39,536 nucleotides of DNA from Escherichia phage NC-A, in the sequence record MK310182. One strand, given 5' to 3'. The translations under genes and the position numbers were made by a program. This document shows positions 3,152 to 35,899 of the stretch, one piece after another. Position 1 is the stretch's first letter. Every line of letters starts with the position of its first letter. The notes below the pieces were generated by a model that saw nothing but the letters and a program-made list of their open reading frames with translations, was not told the DNA's origin and did not search any database.

Positions 3152-5803
3152 ATGAACACGATTAACATCGCTAAGAACGACTTCTCTGACATCGAACTGG
3201 CTGCTATCCCTTTCAATACTCTCGCTGACCATTACGGTGAGCGTTTAGCTCGTGAGCAACTAGCTCTTGAGCATGAGTCTTACGAGATGGGTGAAGCACG
3301 CTTCCGCAAGATGTTTGAGCGTCAACTTAAGGCGGGTGAGGTTGCTGATAACGCTGCTGCAAAGCCTCTAATTGCTACCCTGCTACCCAAGATGATTGCA
3401 CGCATCAACGAGTGGTTTGAGGAGGTACAAGCTAAGCGTGGCAAGCGTCCAACAGCTTTCCAATTCCTGCAAGAAATAAAACCGGAAGCCGTAGCGTACA
3501 TCACCATTAAGACAACGCTGGCTTGCCTAACGAGCGTAGACAATACAACCGTTCAGGCTGTAGCCAGTGCAATCGGTCGAGCTATCGAGGATGAGGCTCG
3601 CTTTGGTCACATCCGTGACCTTGAAGCTAAGCACTTCAAGAAACGCGTTGAGGAACAGCTTAACAAGCGCGTAGGTCACGTCTACAAGAAAGCATTTATG
3701 CAAGTTGTCGAGGCTGACATGCTCTCCAAAGGTCTACTGGGTGGAGAGGCGTGGTCTTCGTGGCACAAGGAGGACTCAATTCATGTAGGTGTGCGCTGCA
3801 TTGAGATGCTTATTGAGTCAACCGGAATGGTTAACTTACATCGTCAGAATGCTGGAGTTGTGGGCCAAGACTCTGAGACTATCGAACTCGCACCGGAATA
3901 CGCTGAGGCTATCGCCACTCGTGCTGGTGCACTGGCTGGTATTTCCCCAATGTTACAACCTTGTGTAGTTCCTCCTAAGCCTTGGACTGGTATTACTGGA
4001 GGTGGCTATTGGGCCAACGGTCGCCGCCCTCTGGCTCTGGTGCGTACTCACAGCAAGAAAGCACTGATGCGCTACGAAGATGTTTACATGCCTGAGGTGT
4101 ACAAGGCGATTAACATTGCGCAAAACACCGCATGGAAAATCAACAAGAAAGTCCTAGCGGTCGCCAACGTAATCACTAAGTGGAAGCATTGTCCGGTCGA
4201 GGATATCCCAGCGATTGAGCGTGAAGAACTCCCGATGAAACCGGAAGACATCGACACGAATCCTGAGGCTCTCACCGCTTGGAAACGCGCTGCTGCCGCT
4301 GTGTACCGTAAAGACAAGGCTCGCAAGTCCCGCCGTATCAGCCTTGAGTTCATGCTTGAGCAAGCCAATAAGTTCGCTAACCACAAAGCTATCTGGTTCC
4401 CTTACAATATGGACTGGCGCGGTCGTGTTTACGCTGTGTCAATGTTCAACCCGCAAGGTAACGACATGACCAAAGGGCTGCTAACACTGGCTAAAGGTAA
4501 ACCAATCGGCAAGGATGGTTTCTACTGGTTGAAGATTCATGGTGCTAACTGCGCGGGAGTTGACAAGGTTCCATTCCCTGAGCGCATCAAGTTCATTGAG
4601 GACAACCACGAGAACATCCTAGCATGCGCTAAGTCTCCTCTGGAGAACACTTGGTGGGCCGAACAAGATTCGCCGTTCTGCTTCTTAGCGTTCTGCTTTG
4701 AGTACGCTGGGGTACAGCACCACGGCTTAAGCTATAACTGCTCGCTGCCACTGGCGTTTGATGGGTCTTGCTCAGGTATCCAGCACTTCTCCGCAATGCT
4801 CCGCGATGAGGTAGGTGGTCGTGCTGTTAACCTCCTTCCTAGTGAAACCGTTCAGGACATCTACGGGATTGTTGCTAAGAAAGTTAACGAGATTCTCCAA
4901 GCTGACGTAATCAACGGGACCGACAACGAAGTAGTGACTGTGACCGATGAGAACACTGGCGAAATCTCTGAGAAAATCAAACTGGGTACTAAAGCACTGG
5001 CTGGTCAATGGCTGGCTTACGGTGTTACACGCAGTGTGACTAAGCGTTCAGTCATGACGTTGGCCTACGGGTCCAAAGAGTTCGGCTTTCGCCAGCAAGT
5101 CCTTGAGGATACCATTCAGCCAGCTATTGATTCCGGCAAGGGTCTGATGTTCACTCAACCTAATCAGGCCGCTGGGTACATGGCGAAACTGATTTGGGAA
5201 TCTGTGAGCGTGACCGTAGTCGCCGCTGTAAAGGCAATGAACTGGCTCAAGTCTGCCGCTAAGCTGCTGGCTGCTGAGGTCAAAGATAAGAAGACTGGAG
5301 AGATTCTTCGTAAGCGTTGCGCGGTACATTGGGTAACTCCTGATGGGTTCCCTGTGTGGCAGGAATACAAGAAGCCTATACAGACCCGCTTAAACCTCAT
5401 GTTCCTCGGTCAGTTCCGCTTACAGCCTACCATTAACACCAACAAGGATAGCGAGATTGATGCACACAAACAGGAGTCCGGTATCGCTCCGAACTTTGTT
5501 CACAGTCAAGATGGTAGCCACCTGCGTAAGACCGTAGTGTGGGCGCACGAGAAGTACGGAATCGAATCATTTGCGTTGATTCACGACTCATTCGGGACCA
5601 TTCCGGCAGACGCTGCCAACCTGTTCAAAGCTGTGCGCGAAACAATGGTTGACACTTATGAGTCTTGTGATGTACTGGCTGACTTCTACGGGCAGTTCGC
5701 AGACCAGCTTCACGAATCTCAATTGGATAAAATGCCAGCACTTCCGGCTAAAGGTAACTTGAATCTCCAAGACATCCTTAAGTCAGACTTTGCGTTCGCG
5801 TAA
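3152..5803 (+). CDS. 1: Gene 1 T7-type single-subunit RNA polymerase (883 aa)
   Basis: MNTINIAKNDFSDIELAAIPFNTLADHYGERLAREQ...; same length as T7 RNAP; genome carries cognate T7 promoters. Confidence 0.99.
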   Translation: MNTINIAKNDFSDIELAAIPFNTLADHYGERLAREQLALEHESYEMGEARFRKMFERQLKAGEVADNAAAKPLIATLLPKMIARINEWFEEVQAKRGKRPTAFQFLQEIKPEAVAYITIKTTLACLTSVDNTTVQAVASAIGRAIEDEARFGHIRDLEAKHFKKRVEEQLNKRVGHVYKKAFMQVVEADMLSKGLLGGEAWSSWHKEDSIHVGVRCIEMLIESTGMVNLHRQNAGVVGQDSETIELAPEYAEAIATRAGALAGISPMLQPCVVPPKPWTGITGGGYWANGRRPLALVRTHSKKALMRYEDVYMPEVYKAINIAQNTAWKINKKVLAVANVITKWKHCPVEDIPAIEREELPMKPEDIDTNPEALTAWKRAAAAVYRKDKARKSRRISLEFMLEQANKFANHKAIWFPYNMDWRGRVYAVSMFNPQGNDMTKGLLTLAKGKPIGKDGFYWLKIHGANCAGVDKVPFPERIKFIEDNHENILACAKSPLENTWWAEQDSPFCFLAFCFEYAGVQHHGLSYNCSLPLAFDGSCSGIQHFSAMLRDEVGGRAVNLLPSETVQDIYGIVAKKVNEILQADVINGTDNEVVTVTDENTGEISEKIKLGTKALAGQWLAYGVTRSVTKRSVMTLAYGSKEFGFRQQVLEDTIQPAIDSGKGLMFTQPNQAAGYMAKLIWESVSVTVVAAVKAMNWLKSAAKLLAAEVKDKKTGEILRKRCAVHWVTPDGFPVWQEYKKPIQTRLNLMFLGQFRLQPTINTNKDSEIDAHKQESGIAPNFVHSQDGSHLRKTVVWAHEKYGIESFALIHDSFGTIPADAANLFKAVRETMVDTYESCDVLADFYGQFADQLHESQLDKMPALPAKGNLNLQDILKSDFAFA

Positions 5804-27221: not shown

Positions 27222-29465
27222 ATGAGTAAGATTGAATCTGCCCTTCAAGCGGCACAACCGGGACTCTCTCGGTTACGTGGGGGCACTGGTGGTATGGGCT
27301 ATCGTGCAGCAACCACTCAGGCTGAGCAACCAAAGCCCAGCTTATTGGACACCATTGGTCGGTTCGCTAAGGCTGGTGCTGATATGTATGCCGCTAAGGA
27401 GCAACGAGCACGAGACCTAGCCGATGAACGCTCAAACGAGATTATCCGTAAGCTGACTCCTGAGCAACGCCGAGAGGCCCTCAACAACGGAACCCTTCTG
27501 TATCAGGATGACCCATACGCTATGGAAGCACTCCGAGTCAAGACTGGTCGTAACGCTGCGTACCTTGTGGACGATGACATTATGCAGAAGATTAAAGAGG
27601 GTGTCTTCCGTACTCGTGAGGAGATGGAAGAGTATCGCCATAGTCGTCTTCAAGAAGGCGCTAAGGCATACGCTGAGCAGTTCGGGATTAACCCTGATGA
27701 CGTTGATTATCAGCGTGGGTTCAATGGGGACATCACCGAGCGTAACATCTCACTGTATGGGGCACATGATAACTTCTTGAGCCAGCAAGCTCAGAAGGGT
27801 GCCATCATGAACAGCCGAGTGGAACTCAACGGTGTCCTTCAAGACCCTGATATGCTTCGTCGCCCAGACTCTGCGGACTTCTTTGAGAAGTACATCGACA
27901 ACGGTCTGGTTACTGGGGCAATCCCTTCGGACGCTCAAGCAACACAGCTTATAAGCCAAGCGTTCAGTGACGCTTCTAGCCGCGCTGGTGGTGCTGACTT
28001 CCTGATGCGAGTAGGTGACAAGAAGGTAACACTCAACGGTGCCACTACGACTTACCGAGAGTTAATGGGCGAAGAGCAGTGGAATGCTCTCATGGTAACA
28101 GCGCAACGTTCTCAGTTTGAGAATGACGCTAAGCTGAACGAGCAGTACCGCTTGAAGATTAACTCTGCGCTGAACCAAGAGGACCCTCGTACTGCGTGGG
28201 AGATGCTCCAAGGTATCAAGGCTGAACTCGATAAGGTCCAACCTGATGAGCAGATGACACCGCAACGTCAATGGTTAATCTCGGCACAGGAGCAAGTTCA
28301 GAACCAAATGAACGCATGGACGAAAGCTCAAGCCAAGGCTCTGGATGACTCCATGAAGTCTATGAACAAACTTGACGTAATCGACAAGCAGTTCCAGAAG
28401 CGAATCAACGGTGAGTGGGTCTCCACGGACTTTAAGGATATGCCAGTCAACGAGAACACTGGTGAGTTCAAGCATAGCGATATGGTTAACTACGCCAACC
28501 AGAAGCTCGCTGAGATTGACCGTATGGACATCCCAGAGAGTGCCAAGGACATGATGAAGCTGAAATACCTTCAAGCGGACTCTAAGGATGGTGCATTCCG
28601 TTCGGCAATTGGGACTATGGTAACTGATGCGAGTCAAGAGTGGTCTGCCGCTGTGATTAACGGTAAGTTGCCTGAACGAACACCCGCTCTGGATGCTCTG
28701 CGTAGAATCCGCAATGCTGACCCTCAGTTGATTGCTGCGTTATACCCAGACCAAGCTGAGTTATTCCTGACGATGGACATGATGGACAGACAGGGTATTG
28801 ACCCTCAGGTTATTCTTGATGCTGACCGACTGACTGCCAAACGTTCCAAAGAGCAACGCTTCGAGGACGATAAGGCGTTCGAGTCTGCACTGAATAGCTC
28901 TACGGCTCCTGAGATTGCCCGTATGCCAGCGTCACTTCGTGAATCTGCACGTAAGATTTATGACTCCGTTAAGTTCCGCTCAGGTAACGAAAGCATGGCT
29001 ATGGAGCAGATGACCAAGTTCCTTAAGGAATCTACCTACACGTTCACTGGTGACGATGTTGATGGTGATACCGTTGGGGTAGTTCCGAAGAACCTGATGC
29101 AAGTCAACTCTGACCCGAAATCGTGGGAGCAAGGTCGTGATATTCTGGAGGAAGCACGTAAGGGAATCATTGCGAGCAACCCTTGGATAACCAACAAGCA
29201 ACTGACCATGTATTCTCAAGGTGACTCAATTTACCTTATGGATACCACTGGTCAAGTCCGCGTCCGGTATGACAAAGAGTTACTCTCGAAGGTCTGGAGT
29301 GAGAACCAGAAGAAACTCGAAGAGAAGGCCCGTGAGAAGGCTCTGGCTGATGCCAACAAACGAGCGCCTATCGTTGCCGCTACCAAGGCCCGTGAAGCTG
29401 CTTCTAAACGAGTGCGAGATAAACGTAAACAGACTCCGAAGTTCATCTACGGACGCAAGGAGTAA
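27222..29465 (+). CDS. 15: Gene 15 internal virion protein C (747 aa)
   Basis: MSKIESALQAAQPGLSRLRGGTGGMGYRAATTQAEQPKPS...; same length as T7 gp15. Confidence 0.97.
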   Translation: MSKIESALQAAQPGLSRLRGGTGGMGYRAATTQAEQPKPSLLDTIGRFAKAGADMYAAKEQRARDLADERSNEIIRKLTPEQRREALNNGTLLYQDDPYAMEALRVKTGRNAAYLVDDDIMQKIKEGVFRTREEMEEYRHSRLQEGAKAYAEQFGINPDDVDYQRGFNGDITERNISLYGAHDNFLSQQAQKGAIMNSRVELNGVLQDPDMLRRPDSADFFEKYIDNGLVTGAIPSDAQATQLISQAFSDASSRAGGADFLMRVGDKKVTLNGATTTYRELMGEEQWNALMVTAQRSQFENDAKLNEQYRLKINSALNQEDPRTAWEMLQGIKAELDKVQPDEQMTPQRQWLISAQEQVQNQMNAWTKAQAKALDDSMKSMNKLDVIDKQFQKRINGEWVSTDFKDMPVNENTGEFKHSDMVNYANQKLAEIDRMDIPESAKDMMKLKYLQADSKDGAFRSAIGTMVTDASQEWSAAVINGKLPERTPALDALRRIRNADPQLIAALYPDQAELFLTMDMMDRQGIDPQVILDADRLTAKRSKEQRFEDDKAFESALNSSTAPEIARMPASLRESARKIYDSVKFRSGNESMAMEQMTKFLKESTYTFTGDDVDGDTVGVVPKNLMQVNSDPKSWEQGRDILEEARKGIIASNPWITNKQLTMYSQGDSIYLMDTTGQVRVRYDKELLSKVWSENQKKLEEKAREKALADANKRAPIVAATKAREAASKRVRDKRKQTPKFIYGRKE

Positions 29466-29491: not shown

Positions 29492-32400
29492 ATGGATAAG
29501 TACGATAAGAACGTACCAAGTGAATATGATGGTCTGTTCCAGAAGGCGGCTGATGCCAACGGGGTCTCTTATGACCTTTTACGTAAAGTCGCTTGGACGG
29601 AATCACGGTTTAAACCCACAGCTAAATCAAAGACTGGACCATTGGGCATGATGCAGTTCACCAAGGCAACCTCTAAGGCAATGGGACTGCGTGTTACCGA
29701 TGGGCCAGACGATGACCGACTGAATCCTGAGTTGGCTATCAACGCTGCCGCTAAGCACCTTGCGGGTCTGGTAGGCAAGTTTGATGGTGACGAACTCAAA
29801 GCTGCCCTTGCGTATAACCAAGGCGAGGGACGCTTGGGTAGTCCACAACTTGAGGCGTACTCTAAGGGAGACTTCTCGTCCATCTCTGAGGAAGGACGTA
29901 ATTATATGCGTAGCCTTCTGGATGTCGCTAAGTCTCCTATGGCTGGACAGTTGGAAGCATTCGGTGGTATCACCCCAAAGGGTAAAGGCATTCCGGCTGA
30001 CGTTGGACTAGCTGGAATCAGCCACAGTCAGAAAGTAACACAGGAACTTCCTGAGTCTACAAGTTTTGACGTTAAAGGTATCGAACAGGAGGCTCCGGCG
30101 AAACCATTCGCCAAGGACTTTTGGGAGACCCACGGAGAAACACTTGATGAGTACAACAAGCGTTCAACCTTCTTCGGATTCAAAGATGCTACCAAAGCTG
30201 TACTATCCAACTCAGTCGCTGGGATGGCTTTCCGTGCTGGTCGTCTTGATAATGGTTTTGATGTGTTTAAAGACACCATTACGCCGACTCGCTGGAACTC
30301 TCACATCTGGACTCCAGAAGAGTTAGAGAAGATTCGAACCGAGGTTAAGAACCCTGCGTACATCAATGTGGTAACTGGTGGTTCTCCTGAGAACCTTGAC
30401 GACCTCATTAAGCTGGCTAACGAGAACTTTGAGAATGACTCCCGTGCTGCCGAAGCTGGTCTAGGTGCTAAACTTAGTGCTGGCGTTATCGGCGCTGGCG
30501 TGGACCCACTCAGCTATGTTCCTATGGTCGGTGTGACTGGTAAGGGCTTTAAGCTAGTCAATAAGGCCCTTGTAGTTGGTGCCGAAAGTGCTGCACTTAA
30601 CGTTGCATCCGAAGGTCTCCGCACATCCGTAGCTGGTGGTAACGCTGACTACTCAGGTGCTGCTTTGGGTGGCTTTTTGTTTGGTGCTGGTATGTCCGCA
30701 ATCAGTGACGCTGTAGCTGCTGGACTGAAACGCAATAAGCCAGAAGTTGAGTTCGACAATGAGTTCATTGGTCCTATGATGCGAATGGAAGCCCGTGAGA
30801 CAGCACGCAACGCAAACTCTACGGACCTCTCTCGGATGAACACTGAGAACATGAAGTTTGAAGGTGAACATAACGGTATTCCTTATGAGGACTTACCGAC
30901 CGAGAAAGGTGCCGTGGTGTTACATGATGGCTCCGTTATAAGCGCAAGCAACCCAACCAACCCTAAGACTCTCAAAGAGTTCTCTGAGGTTGACCCTGAG
31001 AAGGCTGCGCGAGGAATCAAACTTGCTGGGTTCACCGAGATAGGCTTGAAGACCTTGGGGTCTGACGATGCTGACATCCGTAGAGTGGCTATCGACCTCG
31101 TTCGCTCTCCTACTGGTATGCAGTCTGGTTCCTCAGGTAAGTTCGGCGCAACAGCTTCTGACATCCACGAGAGACTTCATAGTACTGACCAGCGTACTTA
31201 TAACGACCTGTACAAAGCAATGTCTGACGCGATGAAAGACCCTGAGTTCTCCACTGGTGGTGCTAAGATGTCTCGTGAAGAGACTCGCTACACTATCTAC
31301 CGTAGAGCGGCATTGGCTATTGAGCGTCCAGAACTACAGAAGGCGCTCACTCCATCTGAGCGTATCGTAATGGACATCATTAAGCGCCACTTTGACACTA
31401 AGCGTGAACTCATGGAGAATCCAGCAATCTTCGGTAATACGAAGGCTGTAAGCATCTTCCCAGAGAGTCGTCATAAGGGAACATACGTTCCTCATGTTTA
31501 TGACCGCCACGCTAAGGCGTTGATGATTCAACGGTACGGTGCTGAAGGTTTACAGGAGGCCATCAAGAAGTCATGGCTAGCAAGTTATGTGTCAAGACCT
31601 GAAGTCAAGGCGCGAGTGGACGAGATGTTGGTAGAGCAGTTACGGGCATCTCAACCAACAGGTAAGACTGCGGGTACTACACCTAATAAGCACTCTTCTA
31701 TCGACACAGCACGTTACCAGATGAAACTGGATGATGCAGCTACACAGGCAAGTGATAAGGTATCGGAACTAAAAGACGTCCTAACAAACGCTGAGAAGCG
31801 AGTTGCGGACCGTGAAAGGAAACTCCAGAACTCCAAGGACAGACTAGCTTCTCATGAGGCTAAGCTGAGGGAGTTGGAAGAAAAACTAGCTGCTAAACCT
31901 AATAGCAAAACCATTCCTGTTAAGATTGAGAGCCGGAAGCAGATGATTGAGACCCAGAAGTCTCACGTCCGTATTAACACAGAGCGTCTCGACTACATGA
32001 AAGGACAGGCTGCTAGGGTCCAAGACAGAATCACCAAAGCCACCGCCGAAGCTGAAGCAGCAGCCTCCGCTGCCAAATGGCAGAAGACTACTGTTGACGG
32101 TGAGGGCACTACTGCTGGTGAGACTATATCAGGTAACGCACCTCAATCAGTACAAGAGGTGACTATGGATATGGTCGAGAAGTACGCTATGGACAAGGCA
32201 TATGGTATCTCCCACTCTGACAAGTTCTCCAACAGCTCCGTGATTGAAGAGAACATTGAGGGCCTAGTAGGTATTGAGAACAACTCGTTCCTTGAAGCCC
32301 GTAACTTGTTTGATTCTGACATATCTATCACAATGCCTGATGGACAACAGTTTGCGGTGAACGACCTAAGGGACTTCGATATGTTCCGCATCATGCCAGC

Positions 32401-33952
32401 GTATGACCGCCGTATTAATGGTGACATCGCCATCATGGGGTCTACTGGTAAAACCACTAAGGAACTTAAGGATGAGATTTTGGCTCTCAAAGCGAAAGCT
32501 GAGGGTGACGGGAAGAAGACTGGCGAGGTTCATGCTCTCATGGATACCGTTAAGATTCTTACTGGTCGTGCTCGACGCAATCAGGACACTGTGTGGGAAA
32601 CATCGATGCGAGCCATCAATGACCTAGGGTTCTTCGCTAAGAACGCCTATATGGGTGCTCAGAACCTTACGGAGATTGCTGGTATGTTTGCCACAGGTAA
32701 CGTGCGTGCTCTCGGTCACGGTATCCCAATTCTGCGCGATACACTTTACAAGTCTAAACCAGTTTCCGCTAAGGAACTCAAGGAACTCCATGCGTCTCTG
32801 TTCGGGAAGGAGGTGGACCAGTTGATTCGCCCTAAACGTGCTGACATTGTACAGCGCCTAAGGGAAGCGACTGATACAGGACCTGCTGTGTCGAACATCG
32901 TAGGGACCTTGAAGTATACCACACAGGAACTGGCTGCTCGCTCTCCGTGGACTAAGATGCTGAACGGAACCACTAACTACCTTCTGGATGCTGCGCGTCA
33001 AGGTATGCTTGGGGACGTTATCAGTGCTACCTTAACAGGTAAGACTACCCGCTGGGAGAAAGAGGGATTCCTTCGTGGAGCCTCCGTAACTCCTGAGCAG
33101 ATGGCTGGCATCAAGTCTCTCATCAAGGAACACATGGTCCGTGGTGAGGACGGGAAGTTTACCGTTAAGGACAAGCAAGCGTTCTCTATGGACCCACGAG
33201 CTATGGACTTATGGCGACTGGCTGACAAGGTAGCTGATGAGGCAATGCTGCGTCCGCACAAGGTGTCCTTACAGGATTCCCATGCGTTCGGAGCATTAGG
33301 TAAGATGGTTATGCAGTTTAAGTCTTTCACCATTAAATCCCTTAACTCTAAGTTCGTGAGGACCTTCTATGATGGCTACAAGAACAACCGAGCCATTGAC
33401 GCTGCGCTGACTAGTATCATCTCTATGGGTCTCGCTGGCGGTTACTACGCTATGGCTGCACACGTCAAAGCGTATGGAATGCCTAAGGAGCAACGTAAAG
33501 AATACTTGGAGCGCGCATTGGACCCAAAAATGATTGCCCACGCTTCGTTGTCTCGTAGTTCTCAATTGGGTGCGCCTTTGGCTATGGCTGACCTAGTTGG
33601 TGGTATCTTAGGGGTCGAGTCCTCCAAGATGGTTCGCTCCACGATTCTACCTAAGGACACCATGAAGGAACGTGACCCAAACAAACCGTACACCTCAAGA
33701 GAGGTAATGGGGGCTATGGGTTCTAACCTTCTGGAGCAGATGCCTTCCGCTGGCTTTGTGGCTAACGTAGGGGCCTCCCTAATGAATGCTGCTGGTGTTG
33801 TTAACTCGCCTAACAAGGCAACCGAGCAGGACTTCATGACTGGCTTAATGAACTCGACCAAAGAGTTAGTGCCTAACGACCCTCTGACTCAACAGCTTGT
33901 GTTGAAGATTTATGAGGCGAATGGTGTCAACTTGAAGGAGCGTCGGAAATAA
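29492..33952 (+). CDS. 16: Gene 16 internal virion protein D with N-terminal lytic transglycosylase domain (1486 aa)
   Basis: N-terminus MDKYDKNVPSEYDGLFQKAADANGVSYDLLRKVAWTESRF (SLT motif); rest collinear with T7 gp16 apart from an extra internal segment. Confidence 0.97.
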   Translation: MDKYDKNVPSEYDGLFQKAADANGVSYDLLRKVAWTESRFKPTAKSKTGPLGMMQFTKATSKAMGLRVTDGPDDDRLNPELAINAAAKHLAGLVGKFDGDELKAALAYNQGEGRLGSPQLEAYSKGDFSSISEEGRNYMRSLLDVAKSPMAGQLEAFGGITPKGKGIPADVGLAGISHSQKVTQELPESTSFDVKGIEQEAPAKPFAKDFWETHGETLDEYNKRSTFFGFKDATKAVLSNSVAGMAFRAGRLDNGFDVFKDTITPTRWNSHIWTPEELEKIRTEVKNPAYINVVTGGSPENLDDLIKLANENFENDSRAAEAGLGAKLSAGVIGAGVDPLSYVPMVGVTGKGFKLVNKALVVGAESAALNVASEGLRTSVAGGNADYSGAALGGFLFGAGMSAISDAVAAGLKRNKPEVEFDNEFIGPMMRMEARETARNANSTDLSRMNTENMKFEGEHNGIPYEDLPTEKGAVVLHDGSVISASNPTNPKTLKEFSEVDPEKAARGIKLAGFTEIGLKTLGSDDADIRRVAIDLVRSPTGMQSGSSGKFGATASDIHERLHSTDQRTYNDLYKAMSDAMKDPEFSTGGAKMSREETRYTIYRRAALAIERPELQKALTPSERIVMDIIKRHFDTKRELMENPAIFGNTKAVSIFPESRHKGTYVPHVYDRHAKALMIQRYGAEGLQEAIKKSWLASYVSRPEVKARVDEMLVEQLRASQPTGKTAGTTPNKHSSIDTARYQMKLDDAATQASDKVSELKDVLTNAEKRVADRERKLQNSKDRLASHEAKLRELEEKLAAKPNSKTIPVKIESRKQMIETQKSHVRINTERLDYMKGQAARVQDRITKATAEAEAAASAAKWQKTTVDGEGTTAGETISGNAPQSVQEVTMDMVEKYAMDKAYGISHSDKFSNSSVIEENIEGLVGIENNSFLEARNLFDSDISITMPDGQQFAVNDLRDFDMFRIMPAYDRRINGDIAIMGSTGKTTKELKDEILALKAKAEGDGKKTGEVHALMDTVKILTGRARRNQDTVWETSMRAINDLGFFAKNAYMGAQNLTEIAGMFATGNVRALGHGIPILRDTLYKSKPVSAKELKELHASLFGKEVDQLIRPKRADIVQRLREATDTGPAVSNIVGTLKYTTQELAARSPWTKMLNGTTNYLLDAARQGMLGDVISATLTGKTTRWEKEGFLRGASVTPEQMAGIKSLIKEHMVRGEDGKFTVKDKQAFSMDPRAMDLWRLADKVADEAMLRPHKVSLQDSHAFGALGKMVMQFKSFTIKSLNSKFVRTFYDGYKNNRAIDAALTSIISMGLAGGYYAMAAHVKAYGMPKEQRKEYLERALDPKMIAHASLSRSSQLGAPLAMADLVGGILGVESSKMVRSTILPKDTMKERDPNKPYTSREVMGAMGSNLLEQMPSAGFVANVGASLMNAAGVVNSPNKATEQDFMTGLMNSTKELVPNDPLTQQLVLKIYEANGVNLKERRK

Positions 33953-33972
33953 TACGACTCACTATAGGGAGA
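33950..33972 (+). promoter_or_regulatory. T7 promoter phi17
   Basis: TAATACGACTCACTATAGGGAGA, overlaps gene 16 stop. Confidence 0.95.
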
Positions 33973-34024: not shown

Positions 34025-35899
34025 ATGGCTAACGTAATTAAAACCGTTTTGACTTACCAGTTAGATGGCTCCAATCGTGATTTTAATATCCCGTTTGAGT
34101 ATCTAGCCCGTAAGTTCGTAGTGGTAACTCTTATTGGCGTAGACCGCAAGGTCCTTATGATTAATACAGACTACCGTTTTGCTACGCGTACTACCATCTC
34201 ACTGACTAAGGCTTGGGGGCCAGCGGACGGGTACACTACCATCGAGTTGCGCCGAGTAACCTCCACGACCGACAGATTGGTTGACTTTACGGATGGTTCA
34301 ATCCTCCGTGCGTATGACCTTAACGTGGCTCAGATTCAGACGGTGCATGTAGCGGAAGAGGCCCGTGACCTGACTGCGGATACCATTGGTGTCAATAACG
34401 ATGGTCACTTGGATGCCCGTGGTCGTCGTATCGTCAACCTAGCGAACGCTGTGGATGACCGTGATGCTGTTCCATTTGGTCAACTTAAGGCCATGAATCA
34501 GAACTCGTGGCAGGCACGTAACGAAGCCTTACAGTTCCGCAATGAGGCTGAGACTTTCCGTAACCAAGCGGAGGGCTTTAAGAACGAGTCCGGCACGAAC
34601 GCTACGAATACCTATAAGTGGCGTAATGAGGCTGAGGGATTCCGTAATGAGGCTGAGCAGTTCAAGAATACTGCGACACAACAGGCTACCGCTGCTGGCG
34701 GCTCTGCGGCTGCTGCTCGCCAATCTGAGGTGAACGCTGCTGCCTCCGCTGCTGCTTCCGCTAACTCTGCTACTTTGGCAGAACAGCAAGCAGACCGTGC
34801 GGAACGTGAGGCGGATAAGTTGGGTAACTGGAATGCGCTTGCAGGAGCCATTGAGGGCGTTAATGAGAACGATGTAACGTTCAAAGGAGATATTAAAACC
34901 CCAATGGATGTTGAAGCTGGTGGACTGATATCCACTGGAGCAGGTCATATTACGAAGGGCTTAAGTGTTGGTGAGGCACTTGATGTTAAAGGGGTTACGG
35001 CTCTCCATAAGGATGTGTGGGTAGATGGTGTAGTTGTTGCCAATGGTGGCATACAACAACAATCAGCACCGAACACTTATAACGATATATGGAGGATGTT
35101 TATTAAAGGTGTACCAGCACACATCGGAAACCGACAAGGCCTTCACATAGGTTGGAACGAGACCAGCAATGGGGAGTCTGACTTTGTGACTAACAAAGGT
35201 GCAGGTGGTGGTGGTTTTGTTTTTCGCACGGTAAACTTTGAGAACTCTGCTGAGATAGGTCGCGTTACATTTATGGGTAACGGTGCAGTACGCGCCTTCG
35301 ATTTTCAGGCTGTTAATGGTGCTCGTATTGAGGCTGGAAATAATATAATTGGTGCAAGTATTTTCTCAGGAATGGGTAGCTGTCAATTTGATACTATGGG
35401 CAACTTACTTGGTGGTCTATGGAACAACGTTGGTGGTGATTTATATAACTACCTACAGAACAAGGCACACTTCGCTAAGCCGCCTGGAGGTGTTCAATTA
35501 TTTACCGCACGCGGTGTTGACTACCTTGAGGGCCTTGTGGATAACACAGCGGTTGGTTTCCGGTGGTTCCTGTCAGACAGAAGGCTTAAGGAAAACATAA
35601 AGGTTGTACGCTCCGCTGACGATATGCTTAATATTATCCGCTCGTACATCCCAGTTTCCTATAAGTATAAGGACTCTGAGTACACCGATAATCGTGGAAG
35701 AACCGTTACTGTTACTGGTAAGAAGTCTCGTGCAGGCTTCATTACTCAGGACCTGATCAGAATCTGGCCAGAAGCGGTAGATGTGTTGTCTGACGGAATG
35801 CAATCCCCAGACCCTAACCAAATCATCGGTGGGCTAATGCTGCTCGTTAAGAACCTAGATGAGCGGGTTCAGGAGCTAGAGAAGAAGAATAACGTTTAA
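34025..35899 (+). CDS. 17: Gene 17 tail fibre protein, chimeric (624 aa)
   Basis: Residues 1 to about 285 match T7 gp17 (MANVIKTVLTYQLDGSNRDFNIPFEYLARKF... and FRNEAE repeats); the C-terminal part is unrelated to T7 and ends in an intramolecular-chaperone-like domain. Confidence 0.95.
   Translation: MANVIKTVLTYQLDGSNRDFNIPFEYLARKFVVVTLIGVDRKVLMINTDYRFATRTTISLTKAWGPADGYTTIELRRVTSTTDRLVDFTDGSILRAYDLNVAQIQTVHVAEEARDLTADTIGVNNDGHLDARGRRIVNLANAVDDRDAVPFGQLKAMNQNSWQARNEALQFRNEAETFRNQAEGFKNESGTNATNTYKWRNEAEGFRNEAEQFKNTATQQATAAGGSAAAARQSEVNAAASAAASANSATLAEQQADRAEREADKLGNWNALAGAIEGVNENDVTFKGDIKTPMDVEAGGLISTGAGHITKGLSVGEALDVKGVTALHKDVWVDGVVVANGGIQQQSAPNTYNDIWRMFIKGVPAHIGNRQGLHIGWNETSNGESDFVTNKGAGGGGFVFRTVNFENSAEIGRVTFMGNGAVRAFDFQAVNGARIEAGNNIIGASIFSGMGSCQFDTMGNLLGGLWNNVGGDLYNYLQNKAHFAKPPGGVQLFTARGVDYLEGLVDNTAVGFRWFLSDRRLKENIKVVRSADDMLNIIRSYIPVSYKYKDSEYTDNRGRTVTVTGKKSRAGFITQDLIRIWPEAVDVLSDGMQSPDPNQIIGGLMLLVKNLDERVQELEKKNNV

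Follow-up and report, generated by a model that had tools for sequence, protein, structure and literature searches.

In bacteriophage T7, gp16 forms the four-fold ring of the internal core of the virion, and the packaged DNA is located around the core (PMC11784390). After ejection, gp15 and gp16 residues 1–228 form a periplasmic tunnel, and only residues 1–228 of gp16 are resolved in this state (10.1101/2021.01.04.424714, PMC8954989). Putative membrane regions of gp16 have been assigned to T7 residues 243–410 and 1119–1290, and the C-terminal portion between them (gp16-C; residues 411–1118), which shows sequence-independent DNA binding, has been placed by modelling in the cytoplasmic toroid of infected minicells (PMC8954989). 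The G737D, I754T and E761K substitutions, which lie within 127 residues, lead to transcription-independent entry of the whole genome and form the basis of the gp16 ‘clamp’ hypothesis (PMC8954989). gp16 is the least understood of the T7 ejection proteins; post-ejection views of its C-terminal domain are limited to low resolution, and the putative clamp that gates DNA entry is without a mechanism. Here, gp16 of Escherichia phage NC-A (sequence record MK310182) was analyzed in a window that comprises the whole 39,536-nucleotide stretch of DNA. NC-A gp16 carries an internal cassette, predicted to be helical, that is missing from T7 gp16 and is located close to the putative clamp.

Mosaicism of ejection proteins is already known. 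In podoviruses, the lysozyme or transglycosylase domain resides on gp16 in T7 and on a gp15-like protein in K1E, K1-5 and phiKMV-like phages (PMC8954989), and the virion RNA polymerase (vRNAP) of N4 is a giant gp16-like ejected protein (PMC8954989; preprint 10.64898/2026.05.18.726046). As at the NC-A locus, domains are gained, lost and swapped in the known cases, and some ejection proteins carry enzymes into the cell. However, the known exchanges involve terminal domains or whole proteins of distant phages, whereas NC-A exhibits a small internal cassette that is shared among close genera at a single loop. In a review of these proteins, the mosaicism discussed concerns terminal domains and whole proteins only (PMC8954989), and Hardies et al. 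described internal virion proteins C and D (IVP-C and IVP-D) as generally helical with segments that score as coiled coils, and no more. The BASEL paper that introduced phage JacobBurckhardt does not mention gp16, the cassette is annotated in no GenBank record of a carrier, and no published description of it was found in the literature covered, which omits most subscription journals. The new part is a slot in gp16-C that contains swappable coil or GNAT-like modules beside the clamp.

NC-A gp16 consists of 1486 residues, compared with 1318 residues in T7 gp16 (NC_001604, T7p51). It matches PHROG 342, ‘internal virion protein with endolysin domain’, with 1326 bits over residues 1–1484 and the gp16 chain 7eyb_I in the PDB with 2780 bits. 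In the BLASTP alignment, residues 1–715 of NC-A gp16 correspond to T7 residues 1–715 with 95% identity and no gaps, and the alignment restarts at residue ∼887 (T7 residue ∼719) with ∼93% identity over the C-terminal 600 residues. Between the flanking segments …RVDEML and MVEKYAMD…, T7 gp16 contains 12 residues (KELHGVKEVTPE) and NC-A gp16 contains 180 residues (residues 714–893), as read from the two sequences. The T7 tripeptide LHG is replaced in NC-A by 171 residues (residues 716–886), with a net gain of 168 residues. T7 gp16 (PDB 7EYB, 7K5C and 6YT5) is the same gene in the same position, with the same N-terminal transglycosylase domain, E37 residue and clamp residues as in NC-A, but no solved gp16 structure contains a counterpart of the NC-A hairpin and tethers. 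The gene and the parts of the insert are as follows.

29492–33952, + strand: gp16 gene (internal virion protein D, a DNA ejectosome component), open reading frame (ORF) of 1486 residues that hosts the cassette
31637–32140, + strand: net 168-residue insertion relative to T7, residues 716–883, from the alignment with T7 gp16
31637–31687, + strand: left tether, residues 716–732 (QLRASQPTGKTAGTTPN…), Thr/Gly/Pro-rich, net basic and predicted to be disordered
31688–31894, + strand: hairpin helix 1, residues 733–801, AlphaFold2 helix with a predicted local distance difference test score (pLDDT) >90
31895–31912, + strand: hairpin turn, residues 802–807 (…AKPNSKT…), non-helical in the AlphaFold2 model
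31913–32101, + strand: hairpin helix 2, residues 808–870, net charge +4, AlphaFold2 helix
32102–32152, + strand: right tether, residues 871–887 (…TVDGEGTTAGETISGNAPQSV), Thr/Gly-rich and predicted to be disordered

An earlier note, made from this DNA, had placed the insert at 31631–32170, had given the two gp16 lengths and a T7 junction of ∼12 residues in place of ∼180 with collinear flanks, and had described the insert as Lys/Glu/Ala-rich, heptad-periodic and encoded by rare codons. Its interval denotes the same feature with slightly wider edges. The lengths agree with the ORF and NC_001604, and pairwise alignment confirmed the junctions. All three residue types are more frequent in the insert than in the rest of gp16 (Ala, 14.3% vs. 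10.4%; Lys, 11.3% vs. 7.6%; Glu, 8.3% vs. 6.8%). The insert, which is also rich in Thr, is very hydrophilic and has a net charge of +7; helix 2, the turn and the left tether are basic, and helix 1 is neutral with 14 Lys and Arg residues and 14 Asp and Glu residues. The heptad periodicity is strong in helix 1, in which the power at a period of 3.5 is 85 vs. 9.5 ± 9.2 in shuffled sequences (0 of 2000 shuffles reach the observed value) and 13 of the 18 a/d positions are hydrophobic. The signal is weaker in helix 2 (p ∼0.06; 12 of 15 a/d positions hydrophobic). The description of the codons is only partly borne out. The codon adaptation index of the insert (0.658) lies at the 4th percentile of equal-sized segments of the genome (0.722 ± 0.038), but its rare-codon fraction (4.8% vs. 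2.4%; seven AGG, AGA or CGG Arg codons and one ATA codon) is reached by 9% of the genome segments. The seven Arg codons are the main cause of the low index. The GC content of the insert (0.49) equals that of the genome. An origin by internal duplication was ruled out, with a best E value of 0.37 in a tblastn comparison of the insert with the remainder of the window and no paralogue in the window.

An AlphaFold2 model of residues 730–872 (mean pLDDT, 91.6; predicted template-modelling score, 0.72) contains two long α-helices (residues 733–801 and 808–870; 69 and 63 residues, respectively) that are connected by a 6-residue turn and packed as an antiparallel hairpin. At 1.5 Å per residue, helices of 63–69 residues correspond to a calculated hairpin length of ∼95–100 Å. 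The same hairpin is observed in a wider model of residues 637–963 with pLDDT values of 82–97. The segments that join it to gp16 (residues 719–734 and 868–887) have pLDDT values below 50 and are rich in Thr, Gly, Pro and Ser, which suggests that they function as flexible tethers. The wider model is poor outside the hairpin (mean pLDDT, 58.5), and the placement of the arm on the gp16 body is not readable from it. The insert is thus predicted, with good confidence, to be a helical hairpin on tethers, and the coiled coil proposed in the earlier note is supported by the predicted two-helix hairpin together with the heptad statistics. In an alignment of seven cassette sequences, the Pro and Ser/Lys residues of the turn are invariant.

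The predicted fold resembles other long two-helix coiled coils in overall shape. Foldseek searches of the PDB and BFVD (predicted viral structures) retrieved generic long antiparallel coiled coils only, none of them at E ≤ 0.001 (best E value, 0.012). The iSH2 segment of PI3K p85 (TM-score, 0.7–0.83), an SMC arm segment (TM-score, 0.76), the Rad50 arm, YscO of the type III secretion system (T3SS), the receptor-binding hairpin of colicins E2 and E9, and AhlC share the shape of the NC-A hairpin. Their sequence identities to it are 9–18% with a best E value of 0.024, and the likeness is an analogy of shape only. Searches of Pfam, PHROG and NCBIfam with the insert yielded only sub-threshold coiled-coil noise, and no GNAT domain was matched by the NC-A insert in Pfam.

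More specific assignments were considered and rejected. For an SMC/Rad50/RecN arm, the best match scores 20.5 bits against cutoffs of 300–1000, head and hinge domains are missing, and the likeness is compositional. A PspA/ESCRT-III-like hairpin finds no Pfam match. A GreA/DksA-like probe of the RNA polymerase channel, which was considered because gp16 acts with the host RNA polymerase, is unsupported, and neither Gre factors nor DksA appear among the top 50 PDB matches in Foldseek. Acidic tip residues are typical of GreA/DksA factors, whereas the tip of the NC-A hairpin (AAKPNSKTIPVK) is basic and contains no acidic tip residues.

The insert was found by blastn and tblastn in 18 of 50,697 phage records, which represent 15 phages (three are duplicated as RefSeq records) from four genera of Studiervirinae. 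In all 18 records, the cassette resides within gp16 and never forms a separate gene. The carriers are distributed as follows.

Teseptimavirus: JacobBurckhardt/Bas65 (MZ501078) and Yep_9
Berlinvirus: PZJ0206, Carena, P483 and A7
Kayfunavirus: ST31, PH1061, ZH4, CY1 and Kc166A; Bas105 is alike by gp16, and its record has no genus
Przondovirus: VIPKPNMC04; phi1_146017 and phi1_146025 resemble VIPKPNMC04, and their records have no genus

Bas65 and the 14 other carriers contain the same cassette in the same slot as NC-A. Escherichia phage JacobBurckhardt (Bas65) is the nearest relative, sharing 93.7% identity with NC-A across the gene and 97% within the insert. The insert had been presented in the earlier note as a peculiarity of this genome, a view that does not hold given the occurrence of the same cassette at 79–96% DNA identity in four genera. 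At the DNA level, ∼480 phage records match gp16, of which the carriers make up a few percent. Of the 120 best gp16-C clusters at 90% identity in a large protein database, 116 are in the T7 state, one contains the cassette (P0002, 34 members) and two are intermediate.

Outside these phages, the insert was absent from 72,556 plasmids and 5,426 E. coli genomes (tblastn/blastn), and peptide-pattern scans detected it in none of 185,579 species genomes and in no JGI metagenome. The same type of scan of IMG/VR returned three known isolates only (P483, A7 and ST31). A search of 5.8 billion proteins with the insert alone yielded only one fragment (P0001); this search is evidently insensitive to short queries, as the full carrier P0002 surfaced only with a longer query. 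No donor gene for the cassette was identifiable in the phage, plasmid, E. coli, species-genome and metagenome searches.

The distribution of identity along gp16 points to lateral exchange of the cassette. The hairpin core, defined as residues 738–847 in a codon-threaded alignment with NC-A as the reference, is 90–96% identical at the nucleotide level to those of the Berlinvirus, Przondovirus and most Kayfunavirus carriers, and 79–82% identical to those of Kc166A and Bas105. In contrast, the rest of gp16 in the carriers of other genera is only 50–68% identical to NC-A, and the linker families and junctions also differ. The number of synonymous substitutions per site (dS) is 0.07–0.5 in the core (∼1.0 for Kc166A and Bas105) and 1.35–4.1 or uncomputable because of saturation in the flanks. 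The low core dS relative to the saturated flanks indicates that the cassette was laterally exchanged and is not an ancestral segment that was lost in T7. The ratio of nonsynonymous to synonymous substitutions (dN/dS) in the core is 0.05–0.41, which indicates purifying selection on the cassette protein, and 88 of the 129 columns are invariant in the core alignment of seven sequences. Other causes of the DNA conservation were ruled out by scans of the insert. An overlapping gene is not indicated (no alternative-frame ORF >45 residues), nor is an RNA element (fold z = −1.0; no Rfam match at E ≤ 1), and no promoter or terminator is present in the insert.

The exchanged unit is larger than the insert and was delimited by sliding identity over 15-codon stretches.

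31559–32191, + strand: laterally shared recombination tract, residues ∼690–900, cassette plus short conserved flanks, from 15-codon sliding identity

The tract takes in ∼25 flanking codons on the left and ∼15 on the right. Identity to the Kayfunavirus PH1061 increases from 36–64% to 91–96% at residue ∼690 and returns to ∼60% after residue ∼900. Identity to T7 drops to 58–80% over residues ∼640–715 and ∼880–900 (31400–31640 and 32140–32200) and is 89–100% elsewhere. Taken together, the dips in T7 identity and the PH1061 tract suggest that homologous recombination took place by way of the conserved helices …RPEVKARVDEML and MVEKYAMDKAYG…, and the position of the dips beside the insert shows that the recombination that brought in the cassette also replaced flanking gp16 sequence. 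The cassette would have entered the Teseptimavirus lineage of NC-A by homologous recombination with another T7-like gp16 via these conserved flanks. Among the carriers, the junctions are mosaic, with at least four left and at least three right types, which points to repeated recombination events. The left tether is variable and indel-rich and belongs to a different linker family in P483, A7, Yep_9 and CY1, and in Carena, P483, A7 and Yep_9, other linker families take the place of the right tether. From these comparisons, the cassette, its slot and its lateral exchange are assigned with high confidence.

The cassette does not seem to be self-mobile, given that no terminal repeats, target-site duplication, endonuclease or intein domain was found. 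Pfam, PHROG and NCBIfam searches revealed no Hint/intein splicing domain in the insert, and alternative ORFs of ≤45 residues leave no endonuclease ORF. Only short, chance-level repeats are present, none of them at the junctions, and the gp16 reading frame continues through the insert with no stop codon. An intein, a homing endonuclease, a transposon or miniature inverted-repeat transposable element, and a group I intron were rejected on the basis of the missing domains, terminal repeats or RNA core. A small HNH endonuclease gene separates gene 15 from gene 16, whose start it overlaps, in PH1061, ZH4 and VIPKPNMC04 (500–949, 500–949 and 465–872 of the extracted loci, respectively). It is absent from NC-A, in which gp15 runs to 29465 and gp16 begins at 29492. 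Co-conversion of the cassette driven by this HNH gene was rejected because the ∼2 kb in between are 50–68% identical and contain no continuous conversion tract.

The slot accommodates several contents other than the NC-A cassette, which are listed below.

T7: empty slot (12 residues)
P0003 and P0004: linker family 1 only (T7-group gp16 proteins of 1369 and 1370 residues; P0003 from ∼39.8-kb contigs)
NC-A, Bas65, P0002, PZJ0206 and the Kayfunavirus and Przondovirus carriers: linker family 1 and coil (the left linker of CY1 differs)
P483: linker family 2 and coil
pO103, VAC71, PP74 and EcpYZU01: linker family 2 and GNAT-like domain of ∼140 residues
Shigella phage A7 (gp16 of 1644 residues): linker 2, coil and GNAT-like domain in tandem, with ENFLR duplicated on either side of the coil
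Yep_9 and Carena: coil with other chimeric combinations of linkers

The linkers-only variants (P0003 and P0004; Logan SRR32236143, nucleotides ∼2609–2840 of the locus) retain both low-complexity tethers and lack the helical core. Their DNA junction is located at a GAAGC(N)GC motif, which flanks the core on either side in full cassettes, and the linkers-only state probably arose by deletion between these short direct repeats.

The GNAT-like domain (∼140–155 residues) occupies the same gp16 slot in ∼12 T7-like phages, including Shigella phage A7, E. coli phage pO103, Klebsiella phage VAC71, Pectobacterium phage PP74 and Enterobacter phage EcpYZU01. In A7, the block spans nucleotides ∼3376–3855 of the extracted locus (MK685668). 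It matches Pfam PF00583 (Acetyltransf_1) with 23.8 bits against a cutoff of 20.7 over profile positions 34–87 of 116, and its RRKGIA segment fits the R/Q-x-x-G-x-G/A acetyl-CoA motif. The block has no match in the PDB, NCBIfam or PHROG. It is 88% identical between A7 and the Przondovirus VAC71, compared with 60–68% in the flanks; on this comparison, the GNAT-like block is also laterally shared between genera. Like the coil, the GNAT-like cassette uses the same slot and anchors, is flanked by linkers and is laterally shared, and A7 contains both in tandem. Unlike the coil, it is alpha/beta acetyltransferase-like, unrelated in sequence and absent from NC-A.

The use of the slot extends beyond the carriers. 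The gp16-C sequence was searched against 1.84 billion 50%-identity representatives, and 60 long matches were aligned. The anchor-to-anchor segment is 19–36 residues long in most of these 60 representatives. In distant lineages (P0163, P0190, P0194, P0140, P0208 and P0196), the same loop contains expansions of 72, 99, 106, 111, 183 and 321 residues, several of which are Lys/Glu-rich and helical in appearance. No similarity of these expansions to the NC-A cassette or to one another was detectable. The presence of unrelated expansions at one loop points to a family-wide permissive site at which helical arms have arisen repeatedly, and in these alignments the slot at T7 gp16 715/716 is a hypervariable, family-wide expansion site.

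The site is defined by its distance from the residues to which the clamp hypothesis refers.

32204–32278, + strand: conserved ‘DNA clamp’ residues G905, I922 and E929 (T7 G737, I754 and E761, respectively), from residue mapping

The slot is located 21 residues before T7 G737, and in NC-A the clamp residues start 18 residues past the right tether. When mapped onto the T7 model, the cassette is in the putative cytoplasmic hub beside the clamp and outside the tunnel and membrane segments. NC-A gp16, judged from its 95% identity to T7 gp16 only, presumably forms part of the virion core and passes into the host by ejection.

The whole is best explained, with modest confidence, by an exchanged tethered-hairpin cassette that occupies a slot in gp16-C and provides an optional binding arm at the site of DNA entry. 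After ejection, gp16-C would form a cytoplasmic hub through which DNA enters, and the hairpin would be exposed in the cytoplasm of the host, ∼20 residues away from the clamp region, before phage gene expression. There, it may bind a host or phage macromolecule, for example, for host takeover or counter-defence, and the GNAT-like domain may be an alternative module that is used likewise in the same slot. The cassette is dispensable for basic ejection, as indicated by T7, which lacks it, and by the natural linkers-only variants. The enzyme-like alternative module in the same slot suggests that the slot contents are add-on cargo and not a part of the channel. An acetyltransferase requires acetyl-CoA, a cytoplasmic metabolite. 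A cytoplasmic interaction or effector role of the hairpin is itself put forward tentatively, as a step that is less than probable on present evidence. More doubtful still is an extension in which the slot is a ‘cargo bay’, with interchangeable effector modules (the coil, a GNAT-like enzyme or both) that are carried by ejected gp16 into the cytoplasm at the DNA entry site, ahead of phage gene expression, and traded between genera under pressure from hosts and their defences; the NC-A hairpin would then be a pre-delivered host-takeover or anti-defence factor.

Several observations weigh against the binding-arm explanation. The cassette is rare (18 of ∼480 gp16-matching records), and any advantage that it confers must therefore be conditional. 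The fold, with generic and non-significant coiled-coil matches only, is uninformative about a specific function. The cytoplasmic placement of gp16-C is a model fitted to low-resolution tomography density (PMC8954989). The GNAT assignment is tentative because it depends on a single Pfam match just above the threshold that is not accompanied by a PDB, NCBIfam or PHROG match. T7 IVP-A matches acetyltransferases and yet is an assembly factor (PMC4819975), a precedent by which the GNAT-like fold in the slot could be structural. Finally, the step from the hairpin to a binding partner or a phenotype is inferred.

The most serious rival, although an unlikely one, is that the basic arm acts on the DNA clamp or the rate of entry: it would bind the entering DNA or the clamp and so change how far the genome enters ahead of transcription or how tightly entry is gated. 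The slot is ∼20 residues upstream of G737, I754 and E761, which are conserved in NC-A, and gp16-C binds DNA non-specifically (PMC8954989); the net charge of +7 and the basic helix 2, turn and left tether would suit such an arm. However, helix 1 is charge-neutral, no DNA-binding family in Pfam or NCBIfam is matched, and tethers that are disordered speak against a precise geometric effect on the clamp. Nor does a GNAT-like domain at this position fit easily with DNA clamping as the general role of the slot contents.

An improbable second rival places the function inside the virion, where the four hairpins of a gp16 tetramer would contact packaged DNA, stabilize the core or aid assembly and would have no role after ejection. 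The four-fold gp16 ring of the mature core is surrounded by DNA (PMC11784390), the arm is net basic, and IVP-A, which is GNAT-like, serves in the assembly of internal proteins (PMC4819975), as a GNAT-like domain in the slot could too. By contrast, T7 and most of its relatives build the same core without the cassette, linkers-only variants exist, and repeated acquisition across genera that differ in their capsid and core is better explained by a self-contained add-on.

Still less credible is a functionless passenger that hitch-hikes by recombination in a loop that tolerates anything. The rarity of the cassette, the 19–321 residues held by the loop across the family and the lack of the core in T7, P0003 and P0004 would be expected of a passenger. 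A core under constraint (dN/dS, 0.05–0.41; 88 of 129 invariant columns) that is intact in ∼15 phages of four genera with several independent junction types would not, and the cassette contains no self-mobility machinery that could drive selfish spread.

The two remaining rivals are extremely unlikely. Loss of an ancestral segment by T7 and most of its relatives would be in line with the apparent core loss at GAAGC(N)GC in P0003 and P0004, but it is contradicted by the core dS of 0.07–0.5 against saturated flanks, the nucleotide identity of 90–96% against 50–68%, the T7 state of 116 of the 120 best gp16-C clusters and the short loops (19–36 residues) of distant gp16 lineages. A longer or reshaped trans-envelope conduit, one of two roles suggested in the earlier note, is dismissed even though a ∼100 Å hairpin is comparable to envelope dimensions, because the very hydrophilic insert resides in gp16-C, outside the tunnel formed by gp15 and the N-terminal part of gp16 and outside the membrane segments (PMC8954989), because the two predicted disordered tethers that attach it prevent it from acting as a rigid spacer, and because the hairpin folds back with its chain ends together and spaces nothing apart. 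The other suggested role, an added interaction surface, appears to be the most plausible one and agrees with the binding-arm explanation.

The slot is a permissive and evidently surface-exposed site of gp16-C that could aid topology tests and engineering. Fusions to internal capsid proteins are already being explored for diagnostics (bioRxiv 10.1101/2024.05.06.592667). The natural variants (empty, linkers only, coil, GNAT, and coil plus GNAT) offer a handle on the role of gp16-C in the cell. A cytoplasmic action of the slot contents would mean that T7-like phages send pre-made effectors into the cell along with their DNA, a mode of delivery that has so far been tied mainly to the N4-like vRNAP and a few other systems. 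Should the contents prove merely structural, the slot is still a clean case of sub-genic modular exchange within an essential virion protein.

Further features of gp16 and its surroundings in NC-A are listed below.

29534–29872, + strand: N-terminal lytic transglycosylase (SLT) domain of gp16, residues 15–127, Pfam PF01464 (105 bits; cutoff, 21.3)
27222–29465: gp15-like ORF upstream of gp16, synteny as in T7
34025–35899, + strand: tail-fibre gp17 downstream of gp16, with a Phage_T7_tail domain
33950–33972, + strand: perfect 23-nucleotide T7 class III-type promoter consensus, located where T7 has phi17 and overlapping the stop codon of gp16

The catalytic Glu37 residue is retained in NC-A gp16, as read from its AWTESRF segment; the catalytic role of E37 has been described for gp16 (PMC8954989; preprint 10.1101/2021.01.04.424714). 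Across the window, 11 promoter-like sites were found within 3 mismatches, which indicates that NC-A uses an RNA polymerase of T7 specificity. NC-A gp17 consists of 624 residues, compared with 553 in T7 on the basis of the T7 coding-sequence coordinates, and its C-terminal end is a Peptidase_S74 intramolecular-chaperone domain (residues 517–585; 48 bits). The length of gp17 and this C-terminal end suggest that the receptor-binding tip of NC-A differs from that of T7. The linkers-only phage from Logan SRR32236143 has a gp17 with the same Peptidase_S74 architecture as NC-A.

Some records of gp16 homologues carry odd labels. The protein is called ‘5′-3′ exonuclease’ in Edwardsiella phage PVN09 and ‘phosphoesterase’ in vB_EcoP_SYGE1. 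In ‘Enterococcus phage EFA-2’, a T7-like genome of 39,964 bp for which the named host is implausible, gp16 bears the label ‘mltF’. Other gp16 proteins are filed under Staphylococcus hyicus and E. coli and probably derive from contaminating phage reads.

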